Source: Candidatus Undinarchaeales archaeon (GTDB lineage: Archaea; SpSt-1190; JASMDC01). From it: DNA of 64,000 nucleotides. The notes beneath the pieces are model-generated. The model was not told where the DNA came from, searched no databases, and worked only from the letters and a program-made list of their open reading frames with translations. The position numbers and the translations under genes were made by a program. Location of the stretch: NCBI GenBank assembly GCA_030753015.1, contig JASMDC010000012.1:28734-92733 (forward strand). Direction: 5' to 3'. Shown here in pieces: positions 5,286-27,600 of the stretch (its first letter is position 1; the number at the start of each line of letters is the position of its first letter).

Positions 5286-8200
5286 GTGTTGCCCCGGAGT
5301 GTGTTCATCTTGGTAGGGCGAACTTCGTTGGTCGTGCTCATCGCATTAACATTGCTCATGCTCCCCGTTGTTGGGAACGGTGAGGGCACGGGGACAGGCA
5401 CCGGTTCCGGCACGGGTGCACCCCAGAACACCGCGGACAATGCAATAGACTTCTCCCAGTTTTTCAGCGAGAGCGAACAAGAGATGCTCGAGACAAACGA
5501 GGAACTGGAAGCCGTAAGAGCGAACCTCCAGATAGCCATCCAGGAATGCTCGGCCAAGGAGGAAGAACGCCTCCAGAAGTGGCAGACGCTTGAGCAGAAA
5601 CGTGTGGTCATGGAGCAGCGTCAGGAGGTCCTTGACCAGCGGACGGAAGAGCGTGTCCAGAAGGAGACAGTGCGCGACGAGAAACAGGTGAACAAGAACA
5701 ACGCTGATGCGGCATTATCAGATTGCCAGGACTGCTCGTGCCCCGAGGGTGAGGAGAACTGCGGCTGCGACTGCGGCGACGAGGAGGCCGCCGTAGCGAC
5801 CGCTCAGGCGGAGCTCACTGCCGCCCAGACCGAGCACACGACGGCCGAGACCGAGTTCAACGATGCTGATGAGTATGCCGCCGCCGCTTGTCTAGTCCAG
5901 GGCGACCTTGACGGTGTTGACCTCCGGGAGGGCGGATGTAGTGGCGGCGCTTGTGTGACCTTTTCGACCGATGAAGAAACGATCACGCAGGACGTCGAAT
6001 CACTGACAGAAGAGGACCCCTTGGCTATTGAGACATCCACGAACGCCGAAGCAGACGATGTTTTTTCAGATATGGATACACCAGAAGCGACGACCACCGA
6101 CTTCGATGCAGCGGCTGGCGACTTCCTGATAAACGGCGTGGACCGGCTCGAGGACCTCATAACCTACACCGAGACTATGGCGGAGGCCTATGATAGACTG
6201 GAGACAGCTATGGAGGAGGACAACGAGGAGCTTACGGCCTATCTCGAGGGAAAGGACCCCATGGGTCTCACACCTGCTGAGCTCGAGGACCTCTTCACGT
6301 TCGTGATGGAGACAAAGGATGAGCTACCTGTGGACGACAACCACTTTTTCGACGCCATGCACTACCTCTCGAGCGAGGAGGGCGAGCTCTTCCTGGCGGA
6401 TGTAGAGGAGAAATCACTGGCCGGCACGATCAGTGGCCTGAACATGGACAAGGAGAACATCGAGAACGTCATCGACGCGCTCCAATCGGAGAAGGAGTTC
6501 TATACGATGCTCCTGTTCTGGGCCGCGGATCCCGAGGACATCGCCTGGGTCTTGGAGGAGATCGCCCTCATCGAGGAATTCCAGGACGCTCTCAAGGACG
6601 AGGTCACTCGGATCGACACTGAGATGGTTAAGCTCAACGAACAGCGAGAGAAGGCAGAGGAGGCGAAGACGGCCATCGTGGAGAGCTTAACGGCGGCCGA
6701 GGCGAAGGTGACGACGGCCACGAACGCCCTCAACGAGTGTAGTGGGGATACGGTCGAGTGCGACGAGGACACGGTGACACAACTCCAGCTAGATCTGCAG
6801 ACGGCGGAAGAGGAAAGGAACCTGTTGCAGACCCAGCTCGATGAGACGAACACGCTGCTCGAAGAACTGGACGCGAAGGGGGGTGCGCTCGAGGAGGAGA
6901 AGGAAAATATCGAGACCACTGTGGACACCTTCGACGATATCATCGGTGGCGAGGAAGTGGACCCTGACGCGCTCAACACCCTGGTGGGCATCACAACAAA
7001 CAGGGCGACGGAAACGGTCGACACCATCGATGAGCAGATAGATCTGAAGAAGGACGAGCAGGGTCAGATCACCATCACGATCGACCAGAGCCAGAACGAC
7101 CTGGAGGACAAGCAGGCCCAGACCGAGAAGGAGCGGCAGGAGCTGGCGCAGAGACAGCTCGAGGAGGCCCAGAAGAAGGAGCTGGAGCTTCAGCAGACCA
7201 AGACCGAACTCTCCACGGACCTCACAGCAGCAGAGGAAAAGCTCGCCTATATCGAGGAACAGCTCAAGGCAGCGACCGAGGAGGGGGACAAGAATACGCT
7301 CGAGGATCTCAAGCAGCAGATCCTCAAGGAACGTGAGGAGCTGGAGACCAAGCTCGGGGAGATAACGAACCAGATCGATGACGCGCGGGACCGTCGCCAT
7401 GAGATCGAGGATAAGTACGGTGTAGGCAATCCCGAACAGCGGACCGCTGAGAACCAGATCGACGAGGCGAAGGCCCAGGAGACGCAGCTCAAGGAGAACC
7501 GTGAGCAGCTCACCACCGACATCAAGGAGAAGGACCAAGTGCTCGCGACCATCGAGGAGCAGCTCAAGGGGGTTTCCAATGACGAGGAACGGAAGCAGCT
7601 CGAGGAGCAGAAGGCGATCGTGCTCAACGAGCGCGAGCAGCTATCCACACAGCTCGAGGACGTGACACAGGACATCGAAGAGGCCGCTACCAAGCGTCAG
7701 GAGCTCGAGACGAAGTACGAGGAGCAGTACGGGGCAGCTCCGCCGGAGGCCGAGCCCAAGGCCACCGATACAAAGGAGGACAAGCCCGGGACGGTGGAGG
7801 AGGCGACCAATGCTTTCGAGTCGGTCATCGAGAACATCGAGCAGGCCGGCGTGGGGATCGAGGGCGAGGAAGCCGTGACCGAGGCCCCACCCAACACCAA
7901 TCCGAATGTTGAGTTCCTCAACGCCGTGACGGAGACACTGGAACGGGTGGGCCAGTCAACTGCCAAGGAAGAACCTGACGAGGGGACGCCCGAGCCGTCG
8001 GAACCCGAGCCCCCGAAGAAGGAGAGAAGACGGCTCGAACCGGTGATCATCCCTCCGCCAGTGGCGTCGTACATCGATCCGTTCCCCACCCAGTACAGCC
8101 CTATAGGGATCATGACGATTATCGAGGAGCCGCTCGTTGCTGTGAAGGCCGCACCGCCCCCGTCACCACCCTCGACATCGTCGCCCGTCACCCCTGCAGG

Positions 8201-8900
8201 CCCGGTCCAACCGTTGCAACCCGGAGAGATCGTAACAGCACCGCCCCAGCTCGATCCGGTGGATGCGGCAAATCTAGCGGCCGTGTTCGTGGACGGGGAA
8301 CAGCTCGAAACGCCGGACGGCGCTACCATCCTCGTGGACTCGACGACCAACGAGGTGTACAAGGTGACCCAGGAGGGAGTGGAGACCACAGGGACCGACC
8401 AGCTCCACATCCAGGAACGGGTGGACCCCCTCACAGGGGATACCGACTACTATGCCGTTGTGGGCAACGTGACCGATGAGAACTCCACTCTCAACGATAT
8501 CGCAGCAGGGAACGTGACAGACATAACCGAGGGAGCCATCATCGAGATCCGCTACCTGGACGATGCCAAGAACGTCCTTTTCATCGGCCCACGATGCCAG
8601 ATGACAAACCTCACGGACGTGGATGTGCGCGTCGTGACCCTCAACGATACGGTCATCAACGCCACCAAGAACGAGACCAACGCCACCGTGATGCTGTTGG
8701 ACATCTCGTGCGTCCCAGCCGTGATCGTGGACAAGGACGATCCCGAGGCCAACGTCGTCACATTCCTTGAGGAGATGGAATGCTTCGGTGCCGATGTGGG
8801 CCGGTGCTTGGACATCGAACTGTACATGGTGGTCATAGGTAAGGACGAGAACCTCTGGGAGGTCCAGTGCATCGAGAAGCTCTATTCAGGGATCGAATGA
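5286..8900 (+). CDS. Large secreted acidic coiled-coil protein of unknown function
   Basis: Signal-like N-terminus, GTGTG linker, long heptad regions, Cys clusters, Pro-rich linker, C-terminal beta-rich domain with many NxS/T sequons; host-like codon usage. Confidence 0.85.
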   Translation: MLPRSVFILVGRTSLVVLIALTLLMLPVVGNGEGTGTGTGSGTGAPQNTADNAIDFSQFFSESEQEMLETNEELEAVRANLQIAIQECSAKEEERLQKWQTLEQKRVVMEQRQEVLDQRTEERVQKETVRDEKQVNKNNADAALSDCQDCSCPEGEENCGCDCGDEEAAVATAQAELTAAQTEHTTAETEFNDADEYAAAACLVQGDLDGVDLREGGCSGGACVTFSTDEETITQDVESLTEEDPLAIETSTNAEADDVFSDMDTPEATTTDFDAAAGDFLINGVDRLEDLITYTETMAEAYDRLETAMEEDNEELTAYLEGKDPMGLTPAELEDLFTFVMETKDELPVDDNHFFDAMHYLSSEEGELFLADVEEKSLAGTISGLNMDKENIENVIDALQSEKEFYTMLLFWAADPEDIAWVLEEIALIEEFQDALKDEVTRIDTEMVKLNEQREKAEEAKTAIVESLTAAEAKVTTATNALNECSGDTVECDEDTVTQLQLDLQTAEEERNLLQTQLDETNTLLEELDAKGGALEEEKENIETTVDTFDDIIGGEEVDPDALNTLVGITTNRATETVDTIDEQIDLKKDEQGQITITIDQSQNDLEDKQAQTEKERQELAQRQLEEAQKKELELQQTKTELSTDLTAAEEKLAYIEEQLKAATEEGDKNTLEDLKQQILKEREELETKLGEITNQIDDARDRRHEIEDKYGVGNPEQRTAENQIDEAKAQETQLKENREQLTTDIKEKDQVLATIEEQLKGVSNDEERKQLEEQKAIVLNEREQLSTQLEDVTQDIEEAATKRQELETKYEEQYGAAPPEAEPKATDTKEDKPGTVEEATNAFESVIENIEQAGVGIEGEEAVTEAPPNTNPNVEFLNAVTETLERVGQSTAKEEPDEGTPEPSEPEPPKKERRRLEPVIIPPPVASYIDPFPTQYSPIGIMTIIEEPLVAVKAAPPPSPPSTSSPVTPAGPVQPLQPGEIVTAPPQLDPVDAANLAAVFVDGEQLETPDGATILVDSTTNEVYKVTQEGVETTGTDQLHIQERVDPLTGDTDYYAVVGNVTDENSTLNDIAAGNVTDITEGAIIEIRYLDDAKNVLFIGPRCQMTNLTDVDVRVVTLNDTVINATKNETNATVMLLDISCVPAVIVDKDDPEANVVTFLEEMECFGADVGRCLDIELYMVVIGKDENLWEVQCIEKLYSGIE

Positions 8901-11335: not shown

Positions 11336-11911
11336 TCACCAGTTCTCGGCAAGGAGCTGGAAGTGTTCCTGACCATGGGCGCAGGCGGGGCATTCCGCGG
11401 GGGCCTCGGGCCCCTCGTGGACGTATCCGCAGTTGTCGCACTTCCACTTCACCGACCGGTCCTTCTTGAACACGGTGCCGTTCTCGATGTTCGCAAGGAG
11501 GCCGAGGTAGCGCTTCTCATGCTGCTTCTCGGCGACGGCGATGGACCGCATGACCGCAGCGATCTCTGGGAAGCCCTCCTCGTCAGCGATGTCGGCGAAC
11601 CCCGGGTACATGGTGGTGTGCTCGAAATTCTCGCCGGCAGCGGAGGCCTTGAGGTTCTCGGCGGTCGAGCCGATGATACCTGCAGGGAAAGCCCCGGTGA
11701 TCTCGACCTCGCCTCCCTTGAGGAACTCGAAGAGCTTCTTCGCATGCTCCCTCTCATTGTCGGCCGTCTCCAGGAAGACGTTCTGGATCTGGACGAAGCC
11801 GTCCTTCTTGGCCTTGGAGGCAAAGAAACCGTAGCGGTTCCGTGCCTGGGACTCTCCAGCGAACGCTGTGAGTATGTTCTTTTCGGTCTTTGTTCCTTTC
11901 AGTTCAGGCAT
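11336..11911 (-). CDS. rbr: Rubrerythrin
   Basis: [27 protein letters not shown] diiron motifs; C-terminal CDNC...CPAC rubredoxin-like domain. Confidence 0.97.
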
Positions 11912-11950
11912 TTTCAATTCACCTTCTCAGACAGAGTTATGGTCATCACT

Positions 11951-12340
11951 TCAGACCTTCGCCGACCATAGGCCGTGGACAGTACAGTACTCCCTGACCA
12001 GAAAGACCTTCTCGGCGGTACAGTTGCAGAAAAGGGCCTCAGGTGCCTGCCCCGGTTTCAGGAACGCTTTGTGCGTACCCGTGTCCGTGACTAGCTCGAT
12101 CATTTCGATGTAGTGCTCAGCCTCCATCGGATGTGCCACAGAGCCCACGGTCACCTTGAGTCCGGTATCTGTATCCTGCACTACGGGCACATGCTTCTCC
12201 TTGCCCTGGTCTTCGTTCTTTCCGGGAAGCAGTGTCATCCGCTGGCCGCAGCACACAAGCTCGGCGCCACCTCCGTGGATCAGCTCAACGATGTTCCCGC
12301 AAAACTCGCACTCATACACTTCCAATCGGTTCGTCGTCAT
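11951..12340 (-). CDS. dfx: Desulfoferrodoxin (2Fe superoxide reductase)
   Basis: CEFC...CCG centre I; EKHVP, HPM..EHYI and C..HG centre II ligands. Confidence 0.96.
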   Translation of the reverse strand: MTTNRLEVYECEFCGNIVELIHGGGAELVCCGQRMTLLPGKNEDQGKEKHVPVVQDTDTGLKVTVGSVAHPMEAEHYIEMIELVTDTGTHKAFLKPGQAPEALFCNCTAEKVFLVREYCTVHGLWSAKV

Positions 12341-12361: not shown

Positions 12362-12826
12362 TCAAGCTTTATTATCAGTACCCGCCGGAGGGTGGGGCGT
12401 ATCACAGCTATCACAATCATGGTCGCAGCTAGCGTGCACGGTGTGTTCTCCATTCCGTGCCCTGTAGTCCTTGATGGCCGCGTGCAGGGCATCGGCGGCG
12501 AGGTTCGAGCAGTGCATCTTCTTGGGCGGGAGCCCGTCCAGTTCGTCCGCCACGTCCTGACGCGTGATCTTCATGGCCTCGTCCACGTGCATGCCCATGG
12601 CCAGCTCGGTGACCATGCTGCTCGTGGCGATGGCAGAACCGCACCCGAATGTCCGGAACTTGATCTCGGAAATGATGTCTTCCTTGACGTTGATGAAGAT
12701 CTCCATGAGGTCGCCGCAGACAGGATTACCTACCTTCCCGTAGCCGTCAGCTTCCTCGATGACGCCGACGTTGCGGGGATTCATGAAGTGCTCCATCACC
12801 TTCTTGCTGTAGCCGATTTGTGTCAT
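12362..12826 (-). CDS. iscU: Fe-S cluster scaffold, IscU/NifU-N type
   Basis: YSKKVMEHFMNPRNVG, GNPVCGD, FGCGSAIA, KMHCSNL; extra His/Cys-rich C-terminal tail. Confidence 0.95.
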   Translation of the reverse strand: MTQIGYSKKVMEHFMNPRNVGVIEEADGYGKVGNPVCGDLMEIFINVKEDIISEIKFRTFGCGSAIATSSMVTELAMGMHVDEAMKITRQDVADELDGLPPKKMHCSNLAADALHAAIKDYRARNGEHTVHASCDHDCDSCDTPHPPAGTDNKA

Positions 12827-12838
12827 GTGACCACCTTC

Positions 12839-13996
12839 TCATAATGGGGATAGGTTTCTTAACCTTTCGACTGTGCCCCGGGCGGCGTCGACCACCGCGG
12901 GCACCTGGGCCATTGTGTTTGACCGTCCGAGGGTGAGCACCATGGACCCATGTGCCTGCTCATGCTTGAGCCCTATAGCGAGGAGTACATGGGACGCCTC
13001 CAGCGTGCGCGAGGTGCAGGCCGAGCCGGTGGCCATGGCGATACCGTACATGTCCATGCTCAGCAGGATGCTCTCGCCTTCGATCCGGCCGAACCGGAAA
13101 CTGGCGTGATGGGGTAATCGTCGCTCGGGATGACCGGTAAGATGGGAGTCCTCGATAGCGAGGATGCCTTTGACAAGCGCGTCCCTGACACCCTGCAACC
13201 GATTGCTCTCTTTGGCCATCTCGTCCCGGGCCAGACGGGCCGCTTCTCCCATCCCCGCGATGGCGAACACGTTCTCGGTACCCGAGCGAAGACCCTGCTC
13301 CTGGCCGCCGCCGGGGAGCACCGTCTGGAGCTTCACACCGGGAGCAACATAGAGGGCGCCGGCACCGGGCGGCCCCCCCATTGCATTCCCGGAGAGGGTG
13401 AGCAGGTCGATACCGTCCCGCTGGACATCGATGGGGATGCGCCCCGCCGTTGCGGTGGCGTCCACATGAAGGTATCTGCCCTTCTCATGGACTATCGTGG
13501 ACACTTCCTTGATGGGTTCGATGGTGCCGATCTCGTTGTTGGCGTACATGACCGAGGTCACAACGGTGGCATCGGTCAACAGCCCCTCCAGCGCCCCGAG
13601 GTCGATGAGCCCCCTCCCGTCCACCGGAGCGAGGGCCAACTCGAAACCATGCTTAGCGAGGTCCTTCATTGGATTGAGCACGGAGATGTGCTCGATGGCG
13701 CTGGCCACCACGGCCTTTCCCTTGCCCATATTCCGGATAGCGGTACCCCTTACGGCGAGATTGTTCGCCTCAGTGGCGCCGCTCGTGAAGATGAGCTTGC
13801 CCTTCTCATCGGCATTGATAAGAGCGGCAAGCCGTTCCCGAGCGTCCTCCACCGCTTGCTTGGTACCGAGACCGTCCGAGTGCAGAGATGATGGATTCCC
13901 GACGTCCTCTACGAGGTACCTCTGGGCAAAGGCGAGGACCCGCGGGTCCACTGGTGTCGCCGAGCCATGGTCCAAGTAGATTCGGTCCATCTCCAT
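12839..13996 (-). CDS. iscS: IscS/NifS-family protein lacking the PLP Schiff-base lysine
   Basis: YLDHGSATP, FTSGATEANN, NNEIG, RSGTEN and GSACTS present; canonical SAHK is replaced by SGNA. Confidence 0.92.
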   Translation of the reverse strand: MEMDRIYLDHGSATPVDPRVLAFAQRYLVEDVGNPSSLHSDGLGTKQAVEDARERLAALINADEKGKLIFTSGATEANNLAVRGTAIRNMGKGKAVVASAIEHISVLNPMKDLAKHGFELALAPVDGRGLIDLGALEGLLTDATVVTSVMYANNEIGTIEPIKEVSTIVHEKGRYLHVDATATAGRIPIDVQRDGIDLLTLSGNAMGGPPGAGALYVAPGVKLQTVLPGGGQEQGLRSGTENVFAIAGMGEAARLARDEMAKESNRLQGVRDALVKGILAIEDSHLTGHPERRLPHHASFRFGRIEGESILLSMDMYGIAMATGSACTSRTLEASHVLLAIGLKHEQAHGSMVLTLGRSNTMAQVPAVVDAARGTVERLRNLSPL

Positions 13997-14004
13997 CTCT
14001 CCGA

Positions 14005-14367
14005 TCAGAACCACATGGCCGCGTTAGCGTCCAGGGCGAGGTCATTGAGGGTGGCGGCTCCGACGATCTTGACGCCGTCCCGCAGCTCAACCTTCTCCCA
14101 GCCGAGCATCCGCTTTGAGGCTTCGCACACGTAAACGGGGATTCCCATCTCGACGGTCTTCTGGAGCATCTCGCCCACGCTGGGGAAGTCGCCGAGCTTG
14201 ATCTTCTCGGCCTCTCCCGGCCGCAACACCTTTAACGCCATCCCGAGGTAGTACACAATAGGTTCAAGGTCCATGGCCTTTGCCGTCTGTGCAAGGACCA
14301 GGGGTGAGTACTGCCGCTCGGGCGCATCGCTCGTCTGGACATAGAGGATCGATTTTTCGTTCTTCAT
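14005..14367 (-). CDS. DsrE/DsrF-like sulfur relay protein
   Basis: 120 aa; pattern LAQTAKAMD...YYLG.A...GIPVYVCEAS with the conserved DsrE Cys; C-terminal GAATL. Confidence 0.8.
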   Translation of the reverse strand: MKNEKSILYVQTSDAPERQYSPLVLAQTAKAMDLEPIVYYLGMALKVLRPGEAEKIKLGDFPSVGEMLQKTVEMGIPVYVCEASKRMLGWEKVELRDGVKIVGAATLNDLALDANAAMWF

Positions 14368-14420
14368 CGTTCCGATCTCCTTGGAGGTCTAATCCGCCAA
14401 TAGTATTATGTACGGGATAA

Positions 14421-14470
14421 CTATAAATACTTTATTGTACTAATTACAATGTAGTAATCATAACAAATCA
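14421..14470. promoter_or_regulatory. Divergent promoter with tandem PerR/Fur-like boxes
   Basis: ATTGTA-CTAAT-TACAAT inverted repeat (14434-14450) followed by TAGTAATCATAACAA (14452-14466), both GTAAnnnTTAC-like; TATAAATA adjacent; lies directly upstream of a Fur-family gene. Confidence 0.65.
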
Positions 14471-14492
14471 TGTTATTGGAGTGCACGAAATC

Positions 14493-14924
14493 ATGGCCGA
14501 TGATGCGATCGAACGCGGAGTGAAGCTTCTCAGGGACCATGGATTGAAGGTGACGCCCCAGAGGCTCGTGATCCTTCGATACCTTGAGAAATATCGTAAT
14601 CACCCTAATGCGGACGAGATCTACAATGCCCTGAAGTCACGGAATCCCTCGCTCTCGAAGACGACCGTCTACAATACACTTGAGACTATGCATAAGCAAA
14701 GGCTCGTCGATGTACTGACTATATCTGAGTCCGAACGCAGGTACGACCTTAGACGAGAGTCCCACCATCACTTCATGTGTCAGGAATGCGGGCGGATCCT
14801 CGACATAGAGATCGCATGCCCGAACTGTCACCGGATCATAAACGGAGAGCACCGGGTCGACGAGGTCCACGGTTACTTCAAAGGAATCTGCAGCGAGTGC
14901 CTGACCAAGGAAGATAAACTATGA
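14493..14924 (+). CDS. perR: Fur-family regulator, PerR-like
   Basis: GLKVTPQR, HPNADEIY, TVYNTL, HHHFMCQECG..D, GICSEC; heads oxidative-stress genes. Confidence 0.85.
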   Translation: MADDAIERGVKLLRDHGLKVTPQRLVILRYLEKYRNHPNADEIYNALKSRNPSLSKTTVYNTLETMHKQRLVDVLTISESERRYDLRRESHHHFMCQECGRILDIEIACPNCHRIINGEHRVDEVHGYFKGICSECLTKEDKL

Positions 14925-16117
14925 GTGAGAGATGGACCATGGAGACCACCGAGATCAAACCGGGCGTGTACTGGGTCGGTGCCATCGACTGGGACGTCAG
15001 GAACTTCCACGGGTACCTGACCCAACGGGGGACCACATACAACGCCTACCTCATCATTGATGAGAAGGTCGTGCTGGTTGACACGGTCAAGGCACACCTG
15101 GCCGATGAGATGCTCGCGCGTATCCGTGCGATCATCGATCCCGCAAAGATCGACTACATAGTCTCTAATCACGTAGAGATGGATCACTCCGGCTCCATCT
15201 CTGCAGTCCTCGAGCACGCTCCGAGCGCGAAGGTCATCACCTCTACCATGGGCGCCAAAGGTCTCAAGCGCCACTACAAGGCGGACTGGGACCTCCAGGT
15301 GGTCAAGAGCGGCGACACCCTGTCCATCGGCAAGCGGACACTGGCATTCGTCCACGTCCCCATGGTCCACTGGCCCGACTCCATGGTCACCTACATCCAC
15401 GAGGACCGTCTCCTGCTCCCCAACGACGGGTTCGGCCAGCATATAGCTTCCTCTGAGCGGTTCGACGACGAGCTCGACTGGGGCATCCTGCGGGAGGAGG
15501 CCGCCAAGTACTACGCGAACATAATCCTCCCCTTCGGCGCGAACGTCCAGAAGGCCATGGAGTCTCTTGGCGGCCTCGATATCGACATGATCGCTCCAAG
15601 TCATGGCATCATCTGGCGCTCGCATATCCCTGACATCCTGGCAGAGTATCAGAAATGGTCGACCTATGCCACCGAGACATGCGCGGTCATCGTCTACGAC
15701 TCCATGTGGGGCTCGACCCAGAAGATGGCGCACGCTCTCGGGGACGGGCTGCGCGAGACCGGCGTACATGTCCACCACCACAATCTCAAGCACACCCACA
15801 TCTCCGATGTGATGACCGACGTCCTCACGGCCCGACTGGTCTGCATCGGCTCACCCACGTTGAACAATGGTATACTCCCGACGGTGGGGGCGTTCCTCAC
15901 CTATGTAAAGGGCCTCCGCCCTGAGAAACGGTTCGGGTTCGCCTTCGGCTCCTATGGCTGGGGCGGACAGGCCGTCAAGGAGATCGAGACCGTCATGGAC
16001 GGGCTCAAATGGGAGCGGCCCGAGGACGGGGTTCGTATCACGTACATCCCGGACGAGGATGAGCTCGACGCGGTGCGGGAGACCGGCCGGGCCCTCGGGA
16101 AACAAATAAGAGACTGA
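14921..16117 (+). CDS. fprA: Flavodiiron protein (FprA, O2/NO reductase)
   Basis: NHVEMDHSG, HWPD, NDGFGQH, PSHG metallo-beta-lactamase diiron motifs; flavodoxin domain SMWGST...GSPT...GSYGW. Confidence 0.97.
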   Translation: MSERWTMETTEIKPGVYWVGAIDWDVRNFHGYLTQRGTTYNAYLIIDEKVVLVDTVKAHLADEMLARIRAIIDPAKIDYIVSNHVEMDHSGSISAVLEHAPSAKVITSTMGAKGLKRHYKADWDLQVVKSGDTLSIGKRTLAFVHVPMVHWPDSMVTYIHEDRLLLPNDGFGQHIASSERFDDELDWGILREEAAKYYANIILPFGANVQKAMESLGGLDIDMIAPSHGIIWRSHIPDILAEYQKWSTYATETCAVIVYDSMWGSTQKMAHALGDGLRETGVHVHHHNLKHTHISDVMTDVLTARLVCIGSPTLNNGILPTVGAFLTYVKGLRPEKRFGFAFGSYGWGGQAVKEIETVMDGLKWERPEDGVRITYIPDEDELDAVRETGRALGKQIRD

Positions 16118-16145
16118 TGTAAGATAATGAAAAGGAGGAATCGAC

Positions 16146-16382
16146 ATGGCAGACATAACCGTATACTCAACGCCAACCTGCCCCTATTGCAAGATGGTCA
16201 AGGCGTTCCTGAACGAGAAAGGGGTCGAGTTCAAGGACATTGACGTATCGACCGATCGCGATGCGGGCAAGACGATGATCGAGAAGTCCGGCCAGATGGG
16301 TGTACCCCAGATCGAGATCAACGACAAGATCATCGTGGGGTTCAACAAGGAAGCGCTAGAGAGGGAACTTGAGAGTGTATGA
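16146..16382 (+). CDS. Glutaredoxin-like protein (NrdH/YruB type)
   Basis: YSTPTCPYC, SGQMGVP, IVGF. Confidence 0.95.
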   Translation: MADITVYSTPTCPYCKMVKAFLNEKGVEFKDIDVSTDRDAGKTMIEKSGQMGVPQIEINDKIIVGFNKEALERELESV

Positions 16383-17295
16383 TGTCATCATCGTGGGCGC
16401 GGGCCCCGCCGGAATAACCGCGGCTGTGTACGCCGCGCGGAAGAAGATGAGGACGCTGGTCCTCACCAAGAACATCGGCGGGCAGGCGGCCCTCTCGGGA
16501 GATGTCGAAAACTACACAGGCTTCCAGTTCATCACCGGAATCGAGCTGGCCCAGAAGTTCGAGGAACATCTCAAGGGCTTCGACATCGAGGTCCGGATCG
16601 ACGTGGAGGCGTCGTGCATCAATAAGGAGGGCGACCATCTTCTGGTCAATACGCCATCGGGTGATATCTCCGCTCGGAGCGTGATCCTCGCCACAGGAAG
16701 ACGTCCTCGGAACCTGAACGTACCGGGCGAGCAGGAATACCGCAACCGGGGTGTGACCTGGTGCGCCACATGCGACGCGCCCCTGTTCAGTGGTATGGAC
16801 GTGGCGGTCATCGGCGGGGGGAACTCCGCCATGGATGCTGCGCTCCAGCTGGACACTATCGCGAACAAGGTCTACCTGGTCAACAGGAACGACGATCTAG
16901 CAGGTGACGAGATAATGAAGGAGAAGCTACTGGCCTCCGAGAAGGTCGAGGTTCTCAATCTAGCAGAGACGAACGAGATCATCGGTGATGACTTCGTGAC
17001 CAATCTCAGAGTGCTCGTGGACGGTGAGGAGCGCCTACTGGTGGTCGGGGGCGTGTTCATCGAGATCGGCTCCGTGCCCGTTAACGCTCCAGCTTGCGAG
17101 GCCGAGAAGAACGAGTGGGGCGAGGTCATCGTCAACGAGCGGTGCGAGACGAACGTCCCCGGACTGTTCGCAGCGGGTGATGTCACGGACATACCGGAGA
17201 AACAGATAATCGCTGCGGCTGGTCAGGGATGTATCGCACTCCTCTCGGCGTTCAAGTACTTATCAACCCACAAGTTCGAAAATGAAACGAAATGA
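16369..17295 (+). CDS. trxB: Thioredoxin reductase
   Basis: GAGPAG FAD motif, CATCD active site, GGGNSA NAD(P)H motif, TNVPGLFAAGD. Confidence 0.93.
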   Translation: MRVYDVIIVGAGPAGITAAVYAARKKMRTLVLTKNIGGQAALSGDVENYTGFQFITGIELAQKFEEHLKGFDIEVRIDVEASCINKEGDHLLVNTPSGDISARSVILATGRRPRNLNVPGEQEYRNRGVTWCATCDAPLFSGMDVAVIGGGNSAMDAALQLDTIANKVYLVNRNDDLAGDEIMKEKLLASEKVEVLNLAETNEIIGDDFVTNLRVLVDGEERLLVVGGVFIEIGSVPVNAPACEAEKNEWGEVIVNERCETNVPGLFAAGDVTDIPEKQIIAAAGQGCIALLSAFKYLSTHKFENETK

Positions 17296-17337
17296 GACGT
17301 GACTGACGATAGAACAGTAACTATTGGAGTGATCAAA

Positions 17338-17850
17338 ATGTTATCGGAAAGGATGCAAGAGGCCTTGAACAAGCAGGTCAACGCGGAGCTCTACTCCTCG
17401 TACCTTTACCTCTCCATGGCGGCCTACTTCTCCGCCAAGAACCTGCCAGGATTCGCCAGCTGGATGACCTGTCAGGTACAGGAGGAGATCGTGCATGCTA
17501 TGAAGATACATCAGCATGTGCTCGGGCGTGGTGGGGGAGCGACCCTTCTACCTATCGAGGGCCCACCCCTCGACTGGGAGTCACCTCGGGCCGTGTTCGA
17601 GGCTACCTATGCCCACGAGCAGAAGGTCACGGGGCTCATCAACGGCCTCGTCGACCTTGCACAGGAGGAAAAGGATCATGCAACAGTGAACTTCCTCCAG
17701 TGGTTCGTCGCGGAGCAGGTAGAGGAGGAGGAATCCGCTAGTGGGGCGCTCGAGAAGGTAAAGCTCGCAGGGGACGGCGCAGGTCTGTTCATGCTTGATC
17801 AGGAGCTCGCTCAGCGGATCTTTACAATCCCCCCCGTCCCTAGTGAATGA
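17338..17850 (+). CDS. ftnA: Ferritin (non-heme, FtnA type)
   Basis: [30 protein letters not shown] ferroxidase ligands. Confidence 0.95.
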
Positions 17851-18305
17851 ATATGATGGAGGAACTGACTATGGCTAACGATGTTGAGATTTGGGATCAC
17901 ATGACAAAGGACCATGCACGGATCATAGGATTCCTTGAGGGGCTGCGCGTGAGCTTCGGCAAGGAGCCCTCGGTGATCAGACAGGCTTTCGAGCGGTTCC
18001 GTTGGACACTGGAGAAGCACTTCTTCACAGAGGAACGTGCCATCTTCACCTTCCTCAAGCAGGAGGATGAGACCGGTGGGATGATCAATGACATCCTCCG
18101 CGAGCACAGTGAGATCCTGGGGATGCTGGATGCGCTCGGTAAGGACATAGATGACGAGCGACACATCGACATCACGGGATTGAGCGACCTGCTGGTCCGA
18201 CATAGCCAGTTCGAGGAGAAGGTGCTCTATCCCCGACTTGATCGGGAGCTGTCCGCCGAGCATAAGCGGTTCATCCTTGGGCGCATAACCTCGATCGTGG
18301 AGTAA
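17847..18305 (+). CDS. Hemerythrin/HHE cation-binding domain protein
   Basis: H...HFFTEE...EH...HSQFEE.VLYP duplicated HHE pattern. Confidence 0.88.
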
Positions 18306-18314
18306 GGTTCTTCT

Positions 18315-18641
18315 GTGGAGGGTCCTACCATGTCGAGTTCTGATGTGAACAAGGGGGATGAAGCAGCAAGTGGCCCAACGGTAGTGCTATCGGACGATGC
18401 TCCGAGCTGCACTTCCCCGAGCTGTCCCCTCTGTCGGTGGGAAACCTTGGCCTTCATCATCCTTGGTTTCTCCCTCGTGATGACCGGCCGGCGGGACTTT
18501 ATGCTCTCAGGCTATCTCATCATATTGGTTGCTTACTCCCTGGCATTCCTCGGCATTCCCCTTCCCGATCCATTCAGGATACAGTCGCGGACCGCTCCCG
18601 CGGCGGGATCGATCGGAGAGGGACCGGAGGCGGATGAATGA
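18315..18641 (+). CDS. Small two-TM membrane protein with a Cys motif
   Basis: CTSPSCPLC followed by two hydrophobic helices; ATGA overlap with the next gene. Confidence 0.65.
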   Translation: MEGPTMSSSDVNKGDEAASGPTVVLSDDAPSCTSPSCPLCRWETLAFIILGFSLVMTGRRDFMLSGYLIILVAYSLAFLGIPLPDPFRIQSRTAPAAGSIGEGPEADE

Positions 18642-20293
18642 CCAAGGACGTGTTCACGTTCCTCGTCGGCGGTAAGGCCGGTGAGGGCACGAAGAAGGCA
18701 GGGCTCACGGCAGGTCGCCTGTTCACAGGACGAGGGCTCCATGTGTTCTTGATGGACGATTACATGAGCCTCATCAGAGGAGGCCATAACTTCTCTGTCA
18801 TCAGCACGACCTCCAGCCCTATCTCCAGCCATTACATGGCCGCCGATCTCGTAGTAGCGCTCGACCAACGAAGTTACGACAACCATAGAGGACATCTGGC
18901 AAAGGACGGTGTGATGGTCTATAACGCCGATGTTGTCAAGGACGCGGAGGGGATCGGACTCCCGCTCACATCCCTGGCCAAGACCTTCCCCAACCCATCC
19001 TTGCGTATCGGTGTGGGTACCATCGCCGTGCTGGCAGCGGCAATCGGGATTACCGGCGACGGGCTGGAGGCATTGGTCAGGGCCGAGTATCCCCGGGATA
19101 TTGAGAACAACATAGCCTATGCTCGGGCCGTGCACGACGCGGTCCCTCAAGAGCTTCATGGCAGGTTCACACTTCCAGAAGGTGACGAGGCGCGGGCCTT
19201 TCTGACCGGGAACGAGGCCATAGCCCTGGGCGCGGTCGCTGGCGGGCTGGACCTTTATGTGGCCTATCCAATGACCCCTGCATCCTCCATCCTCCACTAC
19301 CTAGCGGCTCATGAGGAGGAACTGGGGATCACGACGATGCACGCCGAGAGCGAGCTTGCCGTCATCAACCTGGCCGTTGGTGCTGCCTCTGTAGGGGCCC
19401 GGACGATGGTAGGGACCAGCGGGGGAGGTTTCGCCCTCATGGAGGAGGGGCTCTCTTTGGCAGGGATGGCAGAGGTCCCCATGCTGACGGTACTCTCACA
19501 ACGACCGGGGCCCGCAACGGGCGTCCCCACCTATACATTACAGGGCGACCTCCTCTTCGCCCTCCACTATGGGCATGGTGAGTTCCCCCGCATTGTCGCT
19601 TCCCCGGCGACCGTGGGCGAAGCGTTCTCGGTTACAGCCGAGCTCCTCGACCTCTCGTGGCGGTTCCAGACGCCTGCAGTGCTGCTCACCGAAAAACACC
19701 TATCAGAGTCACGTATGACCACTGAGCTTGCCCTCGACGCAGCCCCCGAGGCCACAGGCATTATGCACGCCGAGGGGGAGTACGCGCGTTACCGGCTCAC
19801 TGAGGACGGCATCTCGCCATTGCTATTCCCCCCGACGACAGAGCTCGTCAAGTGGTCGAGCTACGAGCATGATGAACGGGGCGTCACCACTGAGGCCCCC
19901 AATGCTATCATGTCGATGCAGGAGAAACGCGTACGCAAGAACAAGGCCCTGGTCGCTCATATGCAGCGCATGCGGACTGTCAACGTGTACGGTGACAAGG
20001 GACCTATCATCCTCACCTATGGGTCCACCACCATGAGCGTCCTTGAAGCGCTCAGAGCGGGCGGGCTCGAGGCGATTGTGGTACAGCCCCTGTACCTCGA
20101 ACCGTTCCCATGGTGGGAGCTCAAACGGTTCGCCGATGAACGTATCGTGGTCGTGGAGCAGAGCGCAACAGGCCAGTTCGCGCGCCTCGTCAGTGAGCGC
20201 GGTGGGCTGGTCCCGCGGGCCGTCGTCACCCTCTTCGATGGAAGGCCCTTCGATCCACACGAGCTCGCTGATGAGCTGAGGGGGTGCTTGTGA
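18638..20293 (+). CDS. 2-oxoacid:ferredoxin oxidoreductase alpha subunit (gamma-alpha fusion)
   Basis: GG.AGEG, IRGGHN, GNEAIA, YPMTPAS, TSGGGF, QRPGPATG.PT. Confidence 0.95.
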   Translation: MTKDVFTFLVGGKAGEGTKKAGLTAGRLFTGRGLHVFLMDDYMSLIRGGHNFSVISTTSSPISSHYMAADLVVALDQRSYDNHRGHLAKDGVMVYNADVVKDAEGIGLPLTSLAKTFPNPSLRIGVGTIAVLAAAIGITGDGLEALVRAEYPRDIENNIAYARAVHDAVPQELHGRFTLPEGDEARAFLTGNEAIALGAVAGGLDLYVAYPMTPASSILHYLAAHEEELGITTMHAESELAVINLAVGAASVGARTMVGTSGGGFALMEEGLSLAGMAEVPMLTVLSQRPGPATGVPTYTLQGDLLFALHYGHGEFPRIVASPATVGEAFSVTAELLDLSWRFQTPAVLLTEKHLSESRMTTELALDAAPEATGIMHAEGEYARYRLTEDGISPLLFPPTTELVKWSSYEHDERGVTTEAPNAIMSMQEKRVRKNKALVAHMQRMRTVNVYGDKGPIILTYGSTTMSVLEALRAGGLEAIVVQPLYLEPFPWWELKRFADERIVVVEQSATGQFARLVSERGGLVPRAVVTLFDGRPFDPHELADELRGCL

Positions 20294-21141
20294 TGGATGA
20301 TCTCGGTACTGGGGCGGAGAACACATGGTGCCCCGGATGTGCCAATTTCGGCATCCTCAACGCTACCAAGAAGGCCGTCAAGAAGCTCGAAGAGCGCGGG
20401 GTTGGACGTGACCGACTCCTCATGTCCGCAGGCATCGGCTGCCACGCCAAGATGTTCGACTACTTGGCGCTCTCGGGCCTCTATTCCCTCCATGGTCGCT
20501 CCATCGCCACCGCGCAGGGCATGAAGCTGGCGAATCCCGACCTGAAGGTCATCACGTTCGTCGGGGACGGCGACTCCCTCGGAGAGGGGCTGGCCCACCT
20601 GATGTTCGCCGCGAAGAGGAACGCGGACATCACCGTCATCCTGCATGACAATGGTGTGTACGCATTGACCACCGGGCAGTTCAGTCCCTTGGCATGCAAG
20701 GGCTTCAAAGGGCCCTCAACCCCACGCGGGAGCATCGAGGAGCCCTTCAATCCACTGACCCTCATGTTGGAGGCCGGTGCCACCTTCGTGGCCCGGGGAT
20801 TCCCTGGGCGACAGGACCATCTGGTCGACCTCATGGTGGCGGCAGTGGAGCACGAGGGCTTCGCGGTCATCGATGTGCTCCAGTCGAGCATCACTTTCCA
20901 TGACACCTTCAAGGAGCACAACGGCCTCGTCGATGAGCTCGACCATATCCCTGATACGATCGATGATGCCCGGGTGCTCGCGGTCCGACGAGACCGACTT
21001 CCCATAGGGATCATCTACAAGGTTCAGCGGCCTGTGTACCACACGGAATTGTATGGCGATGCGAATCCCGTGGCACGGCGAAAGCCAAGGGGAGAACGTC
21101 TTGCGGCGATCAGGACGCTGATCACCCCACGAAAGAAATAA
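20293..21141 (+). CDS. 2-oxoacid:ferredoxin oxidoreductase beta subunit (TPP-binding)
   Basis: WCPGC, GIGCH, LHGR, GDGD...[11 protein letters not shown]; LQSSITF where LQPCVTF is usual. Confidence 0.93.
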
Positions 21142-21166
21142 AGAACTCAAAGGAGATGAAAGGGCA

Positions 21167-21325
21167 ATGCAGAAGTTCCAATGTACAGTGTGCAACTATG
21201 TCTACGACCCCGAGCAGGGCGATCTGGAGAACGACGTGGAACCGGGAACGGTCTTCGAGGACCTTCCCAACGACTGGGTTTGCCCCGTGTGCGGTGTGGA
21301 TAAGGACCAGTTCGAGCCGGTATAG
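21167..21325 (+). CDS. Rubredoxin (52 aa; below the ORF-track cutoff)
   Basis: Manual translation: [52 protein letters not shown]; AGGAG upstream. Confidence 0.97.
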
Positions 21326-21348
21326 GCTACGATCGAAGGTGCGTTTCC

Positions 21349-21594
21349 ATGACCCACGATGAAATAACTCCTGCCAAGGAGCTGGATTGTGTGGGCCTCT
21401 ACTGCCCCATACCAATCGCCCAGACCAAGGAGGCCATAGAGACCGTCAAGGTGGGCGAGGTGCTGATGGTGGAGGCCGACGATCCCGCCGCCGAGGAGGA
21501 CATCAAGGCCTGGGCGAAGCATACCGGGCACGAGCTGATGAAAATCGAGCGTGCAGGTTCGATCATGACCTTCTACATCAAGCGTACGAAGTGA
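21349..21594 (+). CDS. tusA: TusA/SirA-family sulfur carrier
   Basis: LDCVGLYCPIP, DDPAAEEDI.AW. Confidence 0.9.
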   Translation: MTHDEITPAKELDCVGLYCPIPIAQTKEAIETVKVGEVLMVEADDPAAEEDIKAWAKHTGHELMKIERAGSIMTFYIKRTK

Positions 21595-21649
21595 TCAGAG
21601 GACACTGCTCACGCTAGGACCGTAGGATGCGCCGGGAGGGGTGTCTTGC

Positions 21650-24613: not shown

Positions 24614-27600
24614 CTAGACCTTGCCACCGGAGCCGCACGTGTAGTCGTCGGGGAAACAACTGTGAGGGGCAGAGTCGCCCTCGCACCATTGGCATTCGGC
24701 CAGCTCCCCGCACGTGGCATCCGTGATGGCATCGTAGCAATCGGGGTGGTCGTCGCCACCCGTCGGATCTCCACCCGAGGTCATATCGCACCAGGGCGGA
24801 TCGGTCATACCGGGTCCGGGGCTGATGCAGTTGGCGGGTGCGTTGGGGTCCACCCACTCGTCCGGAAGGTCTTGGTACTTGTCCGGGCACGGCTGGTCGA
24901 GGTCGACGCGGCATGCGTCCATATCATCTGGGGACTGGCAGCACTTGTAGCCGCTCGGGCCGCCGTCAGTACTACCGCCGTCAGTACCATCGTCCTCGGG
25001 CTTGCAGATGTTCGACTCATACTCACAGTACTCGCCGCCGGTGCATCCGCAGTCCTTGCAGCAGTTGCCGGAATTCTCCTCACCGTTGCACTCATTGTCA
25101 CCGCAGAAGCCACCCTGGCTCCCACCGTCCTCGGGCTTGCAGATGTTCGATCCAGTATCGCAGAACTCACCGCCGGTGCATCCGCAGTCCTTGCAGCAGT
25201 TGCCTGTACTCTCCTCACCGTTGCACATACCATCACCGCAGTATGCTTCGATCCCGCCGCTGCTACCGCCGCTGCTACCGTCGCTGTTGGACTGCCAGTA
25301 GTTCTCAGACATCTCGTTGAACCGCTGTTCGAGGTCCCGCTGGAGCCTGTCCCAACCGCGGCCGTCGGACTCGAGCGCCTTCACGCGCATCTCCTCGTAG
25401 TACAGCTCGAGCTGCTTGAGTTGGGCCTGGTCGTGGTACTGTACGTCCTCGCGCATCTGGCGGAGGTCCCGGGACTTCCACAGGAGCCACTGCATCCGCC
25501 AGAATTGGAACCGGTAGCCCTCCCAATCGCGCTCGAAGCGTTCCATCACGCGACCGGCGTCGTAGGTGCCGTCGAGCTCGCCGCGGAACTCCTCGGCGCG
25601 AGCCTTCATATCGAGAAGGATGCGGTTAAGCTCCTCGGTACCGGGTACGTTCTCGTACTCCATACGATCGACCTCGTCCTCGAAACCCTGGAGCTCGTTC
25701 GTGAGACCGCTGAGGCGCTCGAGCATCCACAGGCTCTGTTGGAACTGCTCTAACTCACGCTGGAACGGCTCGAAGTGGCGCCAGATGTCCCTGACACCGG
25801 CCAAATCGCTCCCCATGGAGGCCAGCTTGTTCTGAAGTTCGCGGAACTGGGACTTTGCTCTGCTCACGTCCACACCGTCGTACTCCATGCGCTCGATCTG
25901 ATCCTCGATTTCCTCGAAGCGGCGCTGGAACTCTTGTGTGATCCGCTGGCCCTCGAGCTGCTGGAACACGGAGTTCTGGAACTCATCGACGCGGCGGTTG
26001 AACGTTTCCTGCTCACGCCAGATGCGGTCCATCTGCTCAGTGGTCCTCAGCTTCTCCTTGAACTCGTCCAGCTCGTACCAGAGGCTCTTGAGCCCACGGC
26101 GAGCATCGGCCGTATCGATACCATCGTACTCCATGTCCTCGAGGCGCTGTTCCATTTCCCTGAACCTGCGCTCGAACTCGCGGGGGATGGTGGCGATGGC
26201 GCGGCGCTGTTCGAGGGCGTTGATCTTGCGCTCGAACTCGTGGATGATCCTGTCCCACCTGCCGCCCTCCATCTCTTGGATCTCGCGCACCACGCGCCGC
26301 AGCTCGGCCCGAAGGTCGGCGAGCTCCTCGTAGAGGTCGTCGACGCGGATGCCGTTGTACTCATCGTCACGGAGCTGGTCCTCCATCTGACGCAGGCGAT
26401 CCTCGAGGCCGCCCAGCCATCGGCGGGACTCGAACTCGCGCTCGATTCGCTCGATGTCACGGTGGAACCGCTCGAGAGCGCGGCCGAGCCGGTGGCTCTG
26501 TATGCCCGAGCTGCGCATCTCTTCTATGCCCTCGCGGATGTCGTTGATGGCGGAGCGGTACGGCTTGGTGTCGACACCGTCATACTCGGCCTCATCGAGG
26601 CGCTGTTCGATATTGCTGAGCCTGTTCTCGATATCGATGAAAGCACCGCTCATCTCGATCTGTTCCCGTAGGTGCCAGAGCTTCTCGAACATCCGCTCAG
26701 CACGCCGGAAGTCGCCCTGCTTGGCCAGACCCTCGATAGTGCGGAGCACCTCTTCGTATTCCCTTCTGAGGTCCTCTACGAAGTCGGGGACCTTGAAACC
26801 ACTGTAGCTGGCGTCCTCGATGCGCCTGTCGATATCCTCAAGGAACCGATAGGCGTCCTCGATCTGATCGTTGAAGTGGCGCCATTGCATGAACGACTCG
26901 AACTCGCGGTGGAGCCGTTCCATCCTGTGATGGCACTTGCCCATGATGCGCTGGAACTCGTGCGGATTACGCACATTGCGCATCTCGTCCATCGCGTTGT
27001 CGAAGCAGAGGGCGACGTCCTTGAGCTTGGTCTCCATCTCGGAGACGTCGAAGCCCTCGTAGGCCATCTTGTCGAGCTCCTCGAACATGCGGTACAGGTT
27101 CTCATCGATCATGGTACGCTCGTAGAAGAAGTGCACAAGGGGCATCTTCTCCATAGCGTTGCGGAAGATCTTCTCGGCCGCCCTGGTTTGACCATTCATG
27201 GCTAGCTTGATGGCCTTGTCGATACCTTCTTCGATCTCGTCCAGAAGGGCGTTCAGGCGCGCACCGACATCGCCCGGAAGCTCTTCAGCGCGGAAGCGCA
27301 TCTCCTCGATCTCATACAGGATGTGCTCCTGCTCACGCAGGAAGTCGAAGTACATCCGCGTCTCGTCAAGAGCACGGTGGAGGCCGCCGAAGCGCTTCTC
27401 GATCTTGCCCAGGAGCTTACCGGCCGACTTGAACTTGCCGGCCTCGATGTCGTCCTGTACCTCCACGATCAAGTCCTCGATCTCGTTGAAGATGGACAGA
27501 GCGGGGCCTATGTCGACACCGTTGGCCACCATCTCCTCGACCTCCCAGGAGACGTCCTGATAGTGACGGAGGATGCCCTCCAGATGGCCGCGGATATGGA

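Follow-up and report, generated by a model that had tools for sequence, protein, structure and literature searches.

The gene group at positions 12362-14367 of the window (the whole 64,000-nucleotide stretch analysed here, C21:28734-92733, from the genome of a Candidatus Undinarchaeales archaeon) raises the question of how sulfur reaches an iron-sulfur (Fe-S) scaffold protein when the IscS encoded beside it lacks the lysine that forms the Schiff base with pyridoxal 5'-phosphate (PLP). Three contiguous genes lie on the minus strand, namely a DsrE-like sulfur-carrier gene (14005..14367; 120 aa; PF02635 at 48.9 bits for a cut-off of 22.7, PF13686 at 48.2 bits), a Lys-less IscS, hereafter IscS* (12839..14014; 391 aa; PF00266 at 233.5 bits over profile positions 1-369 of 371), and the IscU scaffold (12362..12826; 154 aa; PF01592 at 167 bits; TIGR03419 205.8 >= 187.9). 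The grouping that an earlier note had proposed from the letters alone was thus borne out, as all three open reading frames (ORFs) exceeded their Pfam cut-offs. Moreover, a TusA gene is found at 21349..21594 on the plus strand (81 aa; PF01206 at 82.4 bits, cut-off 28.6), at the end of the opposite arm as had been stated. With tusA, although it stands apart here, the dsrE-like gene, iscS* and iscU make up one instance of a four-gene cassette that is conserved widely. The reading favoured here, to which a probability of roughly 55% is given, is that IscS* acts as a non-catalytic platform for IscU, and that TusA and the DsrE-like protein bring sulfane sulfur to it.

The loss of catalytic residues was examined first at the Schiff-base position. 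The minus-strand letters ggg aat gca atg ggg ggg encode G-N-A-M-G-G, in which the GCA codon at 13382..13384 specifies Ala211 (13384-13382) at the site of the PLP Schiff-base Lys (K206 of E. coli IscS), and this substitution, reported in the earlier note, was confirmed by the alignments with E. coli IscS and with Protein Data Bank (PDB) sequences. In the PDB search, the window sequence 'dlltlsgnamggppga' was set against 'dmltissndiygpkgv' of Archaeoglobus fulgidus and 'sahkmygpkg' of an active enzyme, and the closest match was A. fulgidus IscS2 (4eb5, E 6e-124). Furthermore, alignment with E. coli IscS gave the changes Q183->A188, H205->N210, K206->A211 and R354->V359, with C328 kept as Cys333 in the 'GSACTS' persulfide loop, so that among the residues of a type I cysteine desulfurase both Lys206/His205 and Gln183/Arg354 are absent and the loop Cys is present. 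The DATA motif and the GSACTS cysteine had been read correctly in the earlier note, but the form given there for active enzymes was not that of E. coli, which reads DATQ, DAVQ being the form found in the NifS of this genome. IscS* retains the class-V aminotransferase fold (PF00266) and remains below the NifS/IscS equivalog cut-offs (TIGR03402 415.7 < 530.75; TIGR02006 359.5 < 643.2). Lacking the Schiff-base Lys, His205, Gln183 and also Arg354, which binds the substrate, such a protein would be unable to form a persulfide with sulfur taken from cysteine.

That the alanine is an assembly error, a possibility raised in the earlier note, or that the gene is a decaying pseudogene, has a negligible probability, and no point supporting it was found. 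The frame of 391 codons is intact, the IscS of the sister species is 93% identical and has Thr at the Lys site ('SGNT', loci L091/L269), the residue pattern is coherent across the clade described below, and contigs assembled in three separate studies, from one DNA run each, showed 0 differences over the whole 2006-base stretch, though any of them may be the source of this DNA. Moreover, the stretch was also met with in an RNA library, in which one contig spanning 13237-13387 had 0 differences, Ala codon included. On these grounds the artefact explanation was excluded; RNA contigs covered 15 of the 30 bins of the stretch, such presence in an RNA library not being proof of transcription. As a separate observation, the stretch 12362-14367 was detected in marine/seawater metagenome runs of six studies (99-100% of the sampled words), among them the three studies whose DNA runs were compared above, and partly in two metatranscriptome runs.

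A total of 221 distinct IscS-type sequences from the fetched loci were used to build a FastTree phylogeny rooted on the SufS-like protein of this genome. The 123 Lys-less sequences formed a single clade (node support 0.65) with no Lys-bearing member inside. At K206 they carried Asp in 116 cases, Ala in two (the class of the window, 2/123), Glu in two, and otherwise Thr, Asn or Gln. His205 was replaced by Asn in 123/123 and Gln183 by Ala in 114/123, Arg354 was Arg in 0/123, and Cys328 was kept in 123/123, while the Lys-bearing relatives were canonical at all five positions (97/97). The loss of the active site extends over the whole clade of 123 sequences and is therefore not a local quirk of the window. 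IscS* shows all the marks of the A. fulgidus type (position in the Lys-less clade, N205, no K206, no R354, Cys kept), and its assignment to that type, already made in the earlier note, is sustained by the common monophyletic clade and by 4eb5 as best PDB match. One further sequence (L275, G329:C1) is an otherwise canonical IscS reading 'SAHQ', with Lys changed to Gln, His kept and no TusA or DsrE nearby, apparently an independent loss of the Lys or else an error.

The cofactor pocket has been better preserved than the catalytic residues, as H104 and T76 are found in 123/123 members of the Lys-less clade, S203 in 122/123 and D180 in 115/123. This retention fits with the pyridoxamine 5'-phosphate (PMP) or PLP held by A. 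fulgidus IscS in its structures, according to a 2022 review (PMC8918507), and both observations would agree with an IscS* that is still an enzyme, holding PMP/PLP non-covalently and catalysing another reaction or a slow desulfuration for which the carriers serve as acceptors. However, the IscS of A. fulgidus shows no cysteine desulfurase activity, and neither does its D199K variant (according to PMC8918507 and a further paper), and the Arg354 that binds the substrate carboxylate is lost in 123/123 sequences, which makes this explanation very unlikely.

The A. fulgidus protein is the sole member of the clade for which biochemical work exists. The loop Cys of its IscS2 is reported to be a ligand to the [2Fe-2S] cluster on IscU, and the sulfur source of the IscS-IscU pair is called an open question in the 2022 review (PMC8918507). 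The IscS2-IscU pair (4EB5, 4EB7, 4HVK; D199K variant 4R5F) resembles that of the window in its clade, N205, A183, a residue other than Arg at 354, the loop Cys and an adjacent IscU. An A. fulgidus genome was present in our set as one contig of 2,178,400 bases (G175), whose IscS at 512 kb is identical to PDB 4eb5 at 376/377 positions. At 165 kb it has tusA (77 aa, 'YCPEP'), a dsrE-like gene (119 aa), iscS1*, iscU and a helix-turn-helix (HTH) gene, and at 512 kb a truncated dsrE-like ORF (94 aa), iscS2*, iscU and an HTH gene with no tusA. A. fulgidus is therefore like the other cassette genomes in having dsrE-like and tusA upstream of a Lys-less iscS. The crystallised IscS2-IscU locus (L197 2650-2988; L192) seems to have arisen by recent duplication of the full cassette, the IscU (156 aa) being identical. 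In contrast to A. fulgidus, the window has Ala and not Asp at the Lys site, 'MGGPPG' and not 'IYGPKG' around it, and a TusA displaced by 7 kb. A Lys-bearing desulfurase was found neither in G175 nor in G068, the third PF00266 match being an aminotransferase.

The two carriers were then considered. The DsrE-like protein has Cys81 in 'VYVCEAS', invariant in 125/125 distinct homologues, so that the earlier description of the first gene of the operon as a DsrE-like protein with its conserved Cys holds. Its closest solved structure is 3mc3 (E 6e-10), with Cys81 aligned with the Cys of 3mc3 and 3pnx, and it scores far below the DsrE2 equivalog NF047629 (28.9 bits for a cut-off of 210). TusA has Cys19 in 'YCPIP', thus showing the Cys-Pro-x-Pro motif, with the Cys conserved in 94.5%, and does not reach the E. 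coli TusA equivalog (53.4 < 78). A total of 4326 homologues of the DsrE-like protein were found, with an identity of about 80% in archaea and bacteria alike. The proteins of this archaeon and of bacteria such as Thermoleophilia are 75-83% identical (loci L092-L169), while in those same bacterial loci IscS* is 46-50% and TusA 45-58% identical to that of the window; identity of this degree between domains is unusual for a 120-aa protein and would reflect either strong constraint or recent transfer.

The association of these carriers with Lys-less IscS was assessed in three samples, some loci being common to more than one of them. Sample a started from the IscS of the window and comprised 80 loci, of which the 16 nearest to it were all Lys-less and the other 64 Lys-bearing; TusA was found immediately upstream in 16/16 of the former and the DsrE-like gene in 15/16, while neither lay within 5 kb of a Lys-bearing IscS in any of the latter (0/64). 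Sample b, seeded with the DsrE-like protein, also comprised 80 loci, of which 69 had an IscS directly downstream, none with the Lys (one alignment was broken at the site), and 11 had no IscS. Sample c was selected on neither feature; one cassette-bearing genome was picked, 301 genomes belonging to its phylum were searched, and the top 80 matches were used with their flanks. There, at least one carrier adjoined 47 of the 49 Lys-less loci (both in 34, TusA alone in eight, DsrE alone in five, two of them at contig ends, and neither in two), and none adjoined a Lys-bearing IscS (0/31). The comparison across genomes that the earlier note had called for thus came out in its favour, dsrE and tusA adjoining Lys-less but not Lys-bearing IscS. 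One additional Lys-bearing copy in sample c (L212) is divergent from, and adjoins, a complete cassette. According to record titles, the cassette occurs in archaea (Thermoplasmatota, Methanothrix, Bathyarchaeia, Asgard) and bacteria (Thermoleophilia, Ignavibacteria, WOR-3, Zixibacteria). On these gene orders TusA and the DsrE-like protein appear to be the best candidates for delivering sulfane sulfur to IscS*.

The separated position of TusA in the window remains to be reconciled with this order, as here dsrE-iscS*-iscU are contiguous and tusA stands 7 kb off on the other strand. The minus-strand arm consists of five closely packed genes, as called from ORFs and Pfam/NCBIfam profiles, in which the cassette genes are followed, 3' of iscU, by desulfoferrodoxin (Dfx, superoxide reductase; 11951..12340; TIGR00320 172.9 >= 146.9) and finally rubrerythrin (Rbr; 11336..11917; PF02915 and PF21349). 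The divergent plus-strand arm opens with a Fur-family regulator (14481..14924; PF01475), followed in Pfam by a flavodiiron protein (FDP), a glutaredoxin-like protein (Grx, with CPYC), a thioredoxin-reductase-like flavoprotein (TrxR), ferritin and hemerythrin (14921..18305), a 108-aa ORF, and the alpha (551 aa) and beta (285 aa) subunits of a 2-oxoacid:ferredoxin oxidoreductase (OFOR; 18638..21141; TIGR03710 487.7 >= 482.75), which lie directly upstream of TusA. In relatives the corresponding genes all point the same way, as KorA-KorB-TusA-DsrE-IscS*-IscU in records of Ignavibacteria, Zixibacteria and Asgard (L123, L126, L149, L165), and as Fur/FDP/ferritin/Rbr-TusA-DsrE-IscS*-IscU-Dfx in Thermoplasmatota records (L014, L113, L150 and others). 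Moreover, the TusA genes that immediately precede dsrE in relatives share 52-73% identity with the window TusA. From these orders, TusA would be the cassette's own, moved by one inversion of ~7.2 kb (14368..21600) that cut between tusA and dsrE. When the segment at ~14.4-21.6 kb is turned back, all genes fall on one strand as Fur-FDP-Grx-TrxR-ferritin-hemerythrin-ORF-OFOR alpha/beta-TusA-DsrE-IscS*-IscU-Dfx-Rbr. A single event, shared with the sister genome, in which the inverted order is also found (L091), would thus explain the separation; no notable inverted repeats were found at the breakpoints.

The genes around the cassette were compared between 122 cassette loci (898 kb of DNA) and 94 Lys-bearing loci (829 kb). 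Homologues of the window Dfx, Rbr, FDP, ferritin or hemerythrin were found in the flanks of 37/122 cassette loci and of 0/94 Lys-bearing loci, many of the cassette loci being related Thermoplasmatota, with WOR-3, Ignavibacteria and Methanothrix records also included. Unsupervised clustering of the flanking ORFs gave, as families peculiar to the cassette, Dfx (21 loci), rubrerythrin in three clusters (19, 18 and 9), FDP (16) and AhpC/TSA (16), together with Grx (9), a Fer4 protein (9), HSP20 (8), a TrxR-like protein (8 vs. 1) and OFOR beta (9 vs. 1), whereas the families specific to Lys-bearing loci were IscR-type Rrf2 (21 vs. 1), MnmA-type (15 vs. 0) and IscA-type (14 vs. 0) proteins. This stress-gene context suggests that the cassette is used during or after oxidant exposure. 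As an observation of its own, lineages far apart from each other have a two-subunit OFOR as immediate neighbour of the cassette (L016, L021, L025, L122, L123, L126, L149, L165 and L177), at 8-9 of the 122 cassette loci and 0-1 of the 94 Lys-bearing ones; this recurrent enzyme may receive clusters as a client or supply reducing power.

The same flanks bear on a second explanation, in which IscS*-IscU is fed by sulfide, and TusA and the DsrE-like protein are co-located for the handling of reactive sulfur species or persulfide within a stress cluster, without feeding IscU. Free sulfide has been proposed as the sulfur source of A. fulgidus IscS-IscU, as stated in PMC8918507, and the explanation further agrees with the stress genes just described, with the loci of sample c in which either carrier is dispensable beside IscS*, and with the existence of stand-alone DsrE-like genes. 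About 10/80 close DsrE-like genes are of this kind, with unrelated neighbours (cupin, SnoaL, MarR, GNAT, methylmalonyl-CoA mutase, GDT1) among which no common partner was found. However, tusA, dsrE, iscS* and iscU follow one another closely and in an unvarying order, the genes often overlapping or near-abutting (the dsrE-like stop overlaps the IscS start or lies <=15 nt from it); this order holds at the 85/122 cassette loci without stress genes in their flanks; it is kept over two domains while the flanks vary; and neither carrier was found beside Lys-bearing iscSU in samples a and c. Sulfide feeding with bystander carriers is accordingly considered unlikely, though it is the strongest competitor of the platform reading.

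A third explanation would reverse the flow, with the Cys of IscS* and IscU gathering sulfur, for example that set free by damaged clusters or supplied by a Lys-bearing desulfurase, and passing it outwards to the DsrE-like protein and TusA for thio-cofactors or tRNA thiolation. The window genes share with the E. coli relay IscS->TusA->TusBCD->TusE->MnmA an IscS, a TusA, a DsrE-family protein, since TusD is a member of that family, and a persulfide carried between conserved Cys residues, and the oxidative-stress context suits salvage from damaged clusters. TusA is, moreover, a partner of IscS and an acceptor of its sulfur according to a 2026 review, and the IscS-TusA structure 3LVJ is among the PDB matches of the window IscS*. 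In contrast, the E. coli IscS is a Lys-bearing source with tRNA as the sink, while here IscS* would be unable to act as the source, the operon includes iscU and MnmA is missing from the surroundings. In particular, no MnmA or other thiolation enzyme appears among the recurrent cassette neighbours, MnmA flanking 15 Lys-bearing and 0 cassette loci, and IscS* would be unable to generate the persulfide itself. An outward relay is therefore held to be improbable, more so than sulfide feeding.

Other known systems offer partial parallels to the proposed delivery of sulfur to IscS*-IscU by carriers. Sulfur oxidisers are known to exchange sulfur between DsrE and TusA, and the structure 3MC3 and the DsrE3/TusA carriers of those organisms share with the window protein the DsrE fold and an aligned Cys ('yvCvqs'/'yvCeas'), but the partner in the window is IscS*-IscU and not Dsr or Hdr-like sulfur-oxidation genes. 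The route SufS-SufE/SufU->SufBCD is alike in concept, as a small carrier shields the sulfane sulfur on its way to the scaffold and a link to oxidant stress exists; it differs in that the SufE/SufU and SufBCD families are unrelated, SufS is an active desulfurase and this genome has no SufB/D. The minimal iron-sulfur (MIS) system of Garcia et al. 2022 is an IscS-like and IscU-like pair without IscA, Hsc and Fdx, which according to the 2026 review has received less study than any other Fe-S system and whose electron donors it describes as unknown; the flank clustering gave IscA-type proteins at 0 and Rrf2 at 1 of the cassette loci. Finally, the isc1 cluster of Methanosarcina acetivorans (IscS1 MA0808, IscU1 MA0807) is a close known system; the Methanosarcinales loci L016 and L021 read tusA-dsrE-like-iscS*-iscU, and the DsrE-like protein of that lineage is just ~40-45% identical to that of the window.

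The inventory of Fe-S genes was taken over the whole genome, which is 98.9% complete. Only one NifU_N match was found, the cassette IscU, which carries the three Cys (C37, C62, C106), D39, H105 and LPPxK motif ('LPPKK') of a scaffold. No SufB/D core (PF01458) was found in this genome, while the same profile matched 14/14 control genomes, and no SufC exceeded its cut-off (78 bits at best, 212.8 required). A PF01458 match was likewise missing from the sister genome (G304, 99% complete). The cassette is the only recognisable Fe-S scaffold system found in this genome. As to desulfurases, contig C34 encodes, beside cysK and cysE, a NifS at equivalog level (535.5 >= 530.75) and a SufS-like protein (462.6 < 475.1), both with the Lys. 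Because these two proteins are encoded, the cysteine independence that had been proposed for this organism is unsupported. The contrast with A. fulgidus is plain, as this genome has no SufB/D and a canonical NifS, while in A. fulgidus SufB is present and a Lys-bearing desulfurase is not found; for A. fulgidus, cysteine independence is plausible. Within IscU itself, the Cys-rich C-terminal tail 'SCDHDCDSCD' (12362-12450, minus strand) adds three extra Cys and is absent from most of the 191 aligned IscU sequences.

Taken together, IscS* would most likely be a dimeric platform for IscU, lending it the loop Cys333 by analogy with A. fulgidus IscS2-IscU. Sulfur would enter as protein-bound sulfane sulfur through TusA Cys19 and DsrE-like Cys81, and be passed to Cys333 of IscS* and/or to the cysteines of IscU. 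Its reduction to sulfide would take place on the scaffold, with the Grx/TrxR pair encoded nearby, or ferredoxin reduced by OFOR, as possible electron donors. The upstream source in this organism may well be cysteine, through the separately encoded NifS, while in A. fulgidus, where no Lys-bearing desulfurase was found, it would have to be something else. The path that sulfur takes and its direction, like the reductant and the regulation, are inferences. The cassette probably serves both housekeeping and stress-time cluster assembly or reassembly, because it lies in an oxygen-defence cluster with a PerR-like regulator and is the sole recognisable scaffold system.

Several points weigh against carrier-fed assembly on IscS*. 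Contact of TusA or the DsrE-like protein with IscS* or IscU, and sulfur transfer to them, are putative. Because the Lys-less clade is monophyletic, the carrier synteny has been conserved after one origin, that is, one ancient event and its retention and not repeated independent co-occurrence, and the node support of that clade is just 0.65. Either carrier can be missing beside IscS*, close DsrE-like genes can stand alone, and TusA is 7 kb away in the window. Furthermore, the retention of H104, D180, T76 and S203, together with the PMP bound by A. fulgidus IscS, may indicate a residual or different chemistry; NifS and the SufS-like protein may make cysteine the ultimate source; the oxygen-defence neighbours could account for TusA and the DsrE-like protein through the handling of reactive sulfur species, with no role in feeding IscU; and free sulfide, a published hypothesis, is compatible with the data. 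A more far-reaching proposal, regarded as tentative and rather doubtful, is that the cassette is the sole de novo Fe-S machinery of this organism, which would have neither SufBC/SMS nor another IscU, and of a self-standing type, running TusA->DsrE-like->IscS* Cys333->IscU on protein persulfide only, with reduction by Grx/TrxR or OFOR/ferredoxin and a PerR-like oxidant switch.

An inactive IscS of the A. fulgidus type, to which the window IscS belongs, is already known. What is new here is the probable origin of the window TusA by inversion, the oxygen-defence flanks of the cassette loci and their absence from Lys-bearing ones, and the single IscU without SufB/D. No paper linking DsrE or TusA with a Lys-less IscS was found in the searchable literature, supplements being outside the search, and for these searchable papers the earlier statement that the three-part arrangement had no prior description holds; Deere et al. 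2020 (PMC7585200) mention four unnamed genes beside M. acetivorans iscS1-iscU1. If true, the self-standing proposal would answer the question of the sulfur source of the A. fulgidus-type 'dead' IscS. The presence of tusA and dsrE-like directly upstream in A. fulgidus itself provides two concrete donor candidates, testable with proteins already crystallised, and the recurrent oxygen-defence, Grx/TrxR and OFOR neighbours hint at the time of use and at a possible persulfide reductant. Moreover, a near-complete genome with the cassette as its sole scaffold suggests that the cassette can carry housekeeping Fe-S biogenesis, a point of relevance to models in which early cluster assembly did without cysteine.

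Regarding the regulator, the top matches of the Fur-family protein were PerR models, all under their cut-offs (NF052545 PerR, 108.4 bits vs. 180). An inverted repeat TTGTA-N5-TACAA, a possible operator, was found in the AT-rich divergent promoter region (14400-14470) that separates the gene of the PerR-like regulator from the dsrE-like one. At the genome level, the two genomes of this genus have 3.6-3.85 Mb vs. 0.6-1.2 Mb in relatives of the same class, pointing to an odd placement or to an unusually large-genomed branch. Elsewhere in the window, two very long ORFs were observed, one at 24614-30193 on the minus strand (1859 aa) and the other at 5286-8900 on the plus strand (1204 aa), the product of the latter being extremely acidic, with coiled-coil-like repeats rich in Glu, Gln and Thr and an N-terminal hydrophobic segment.

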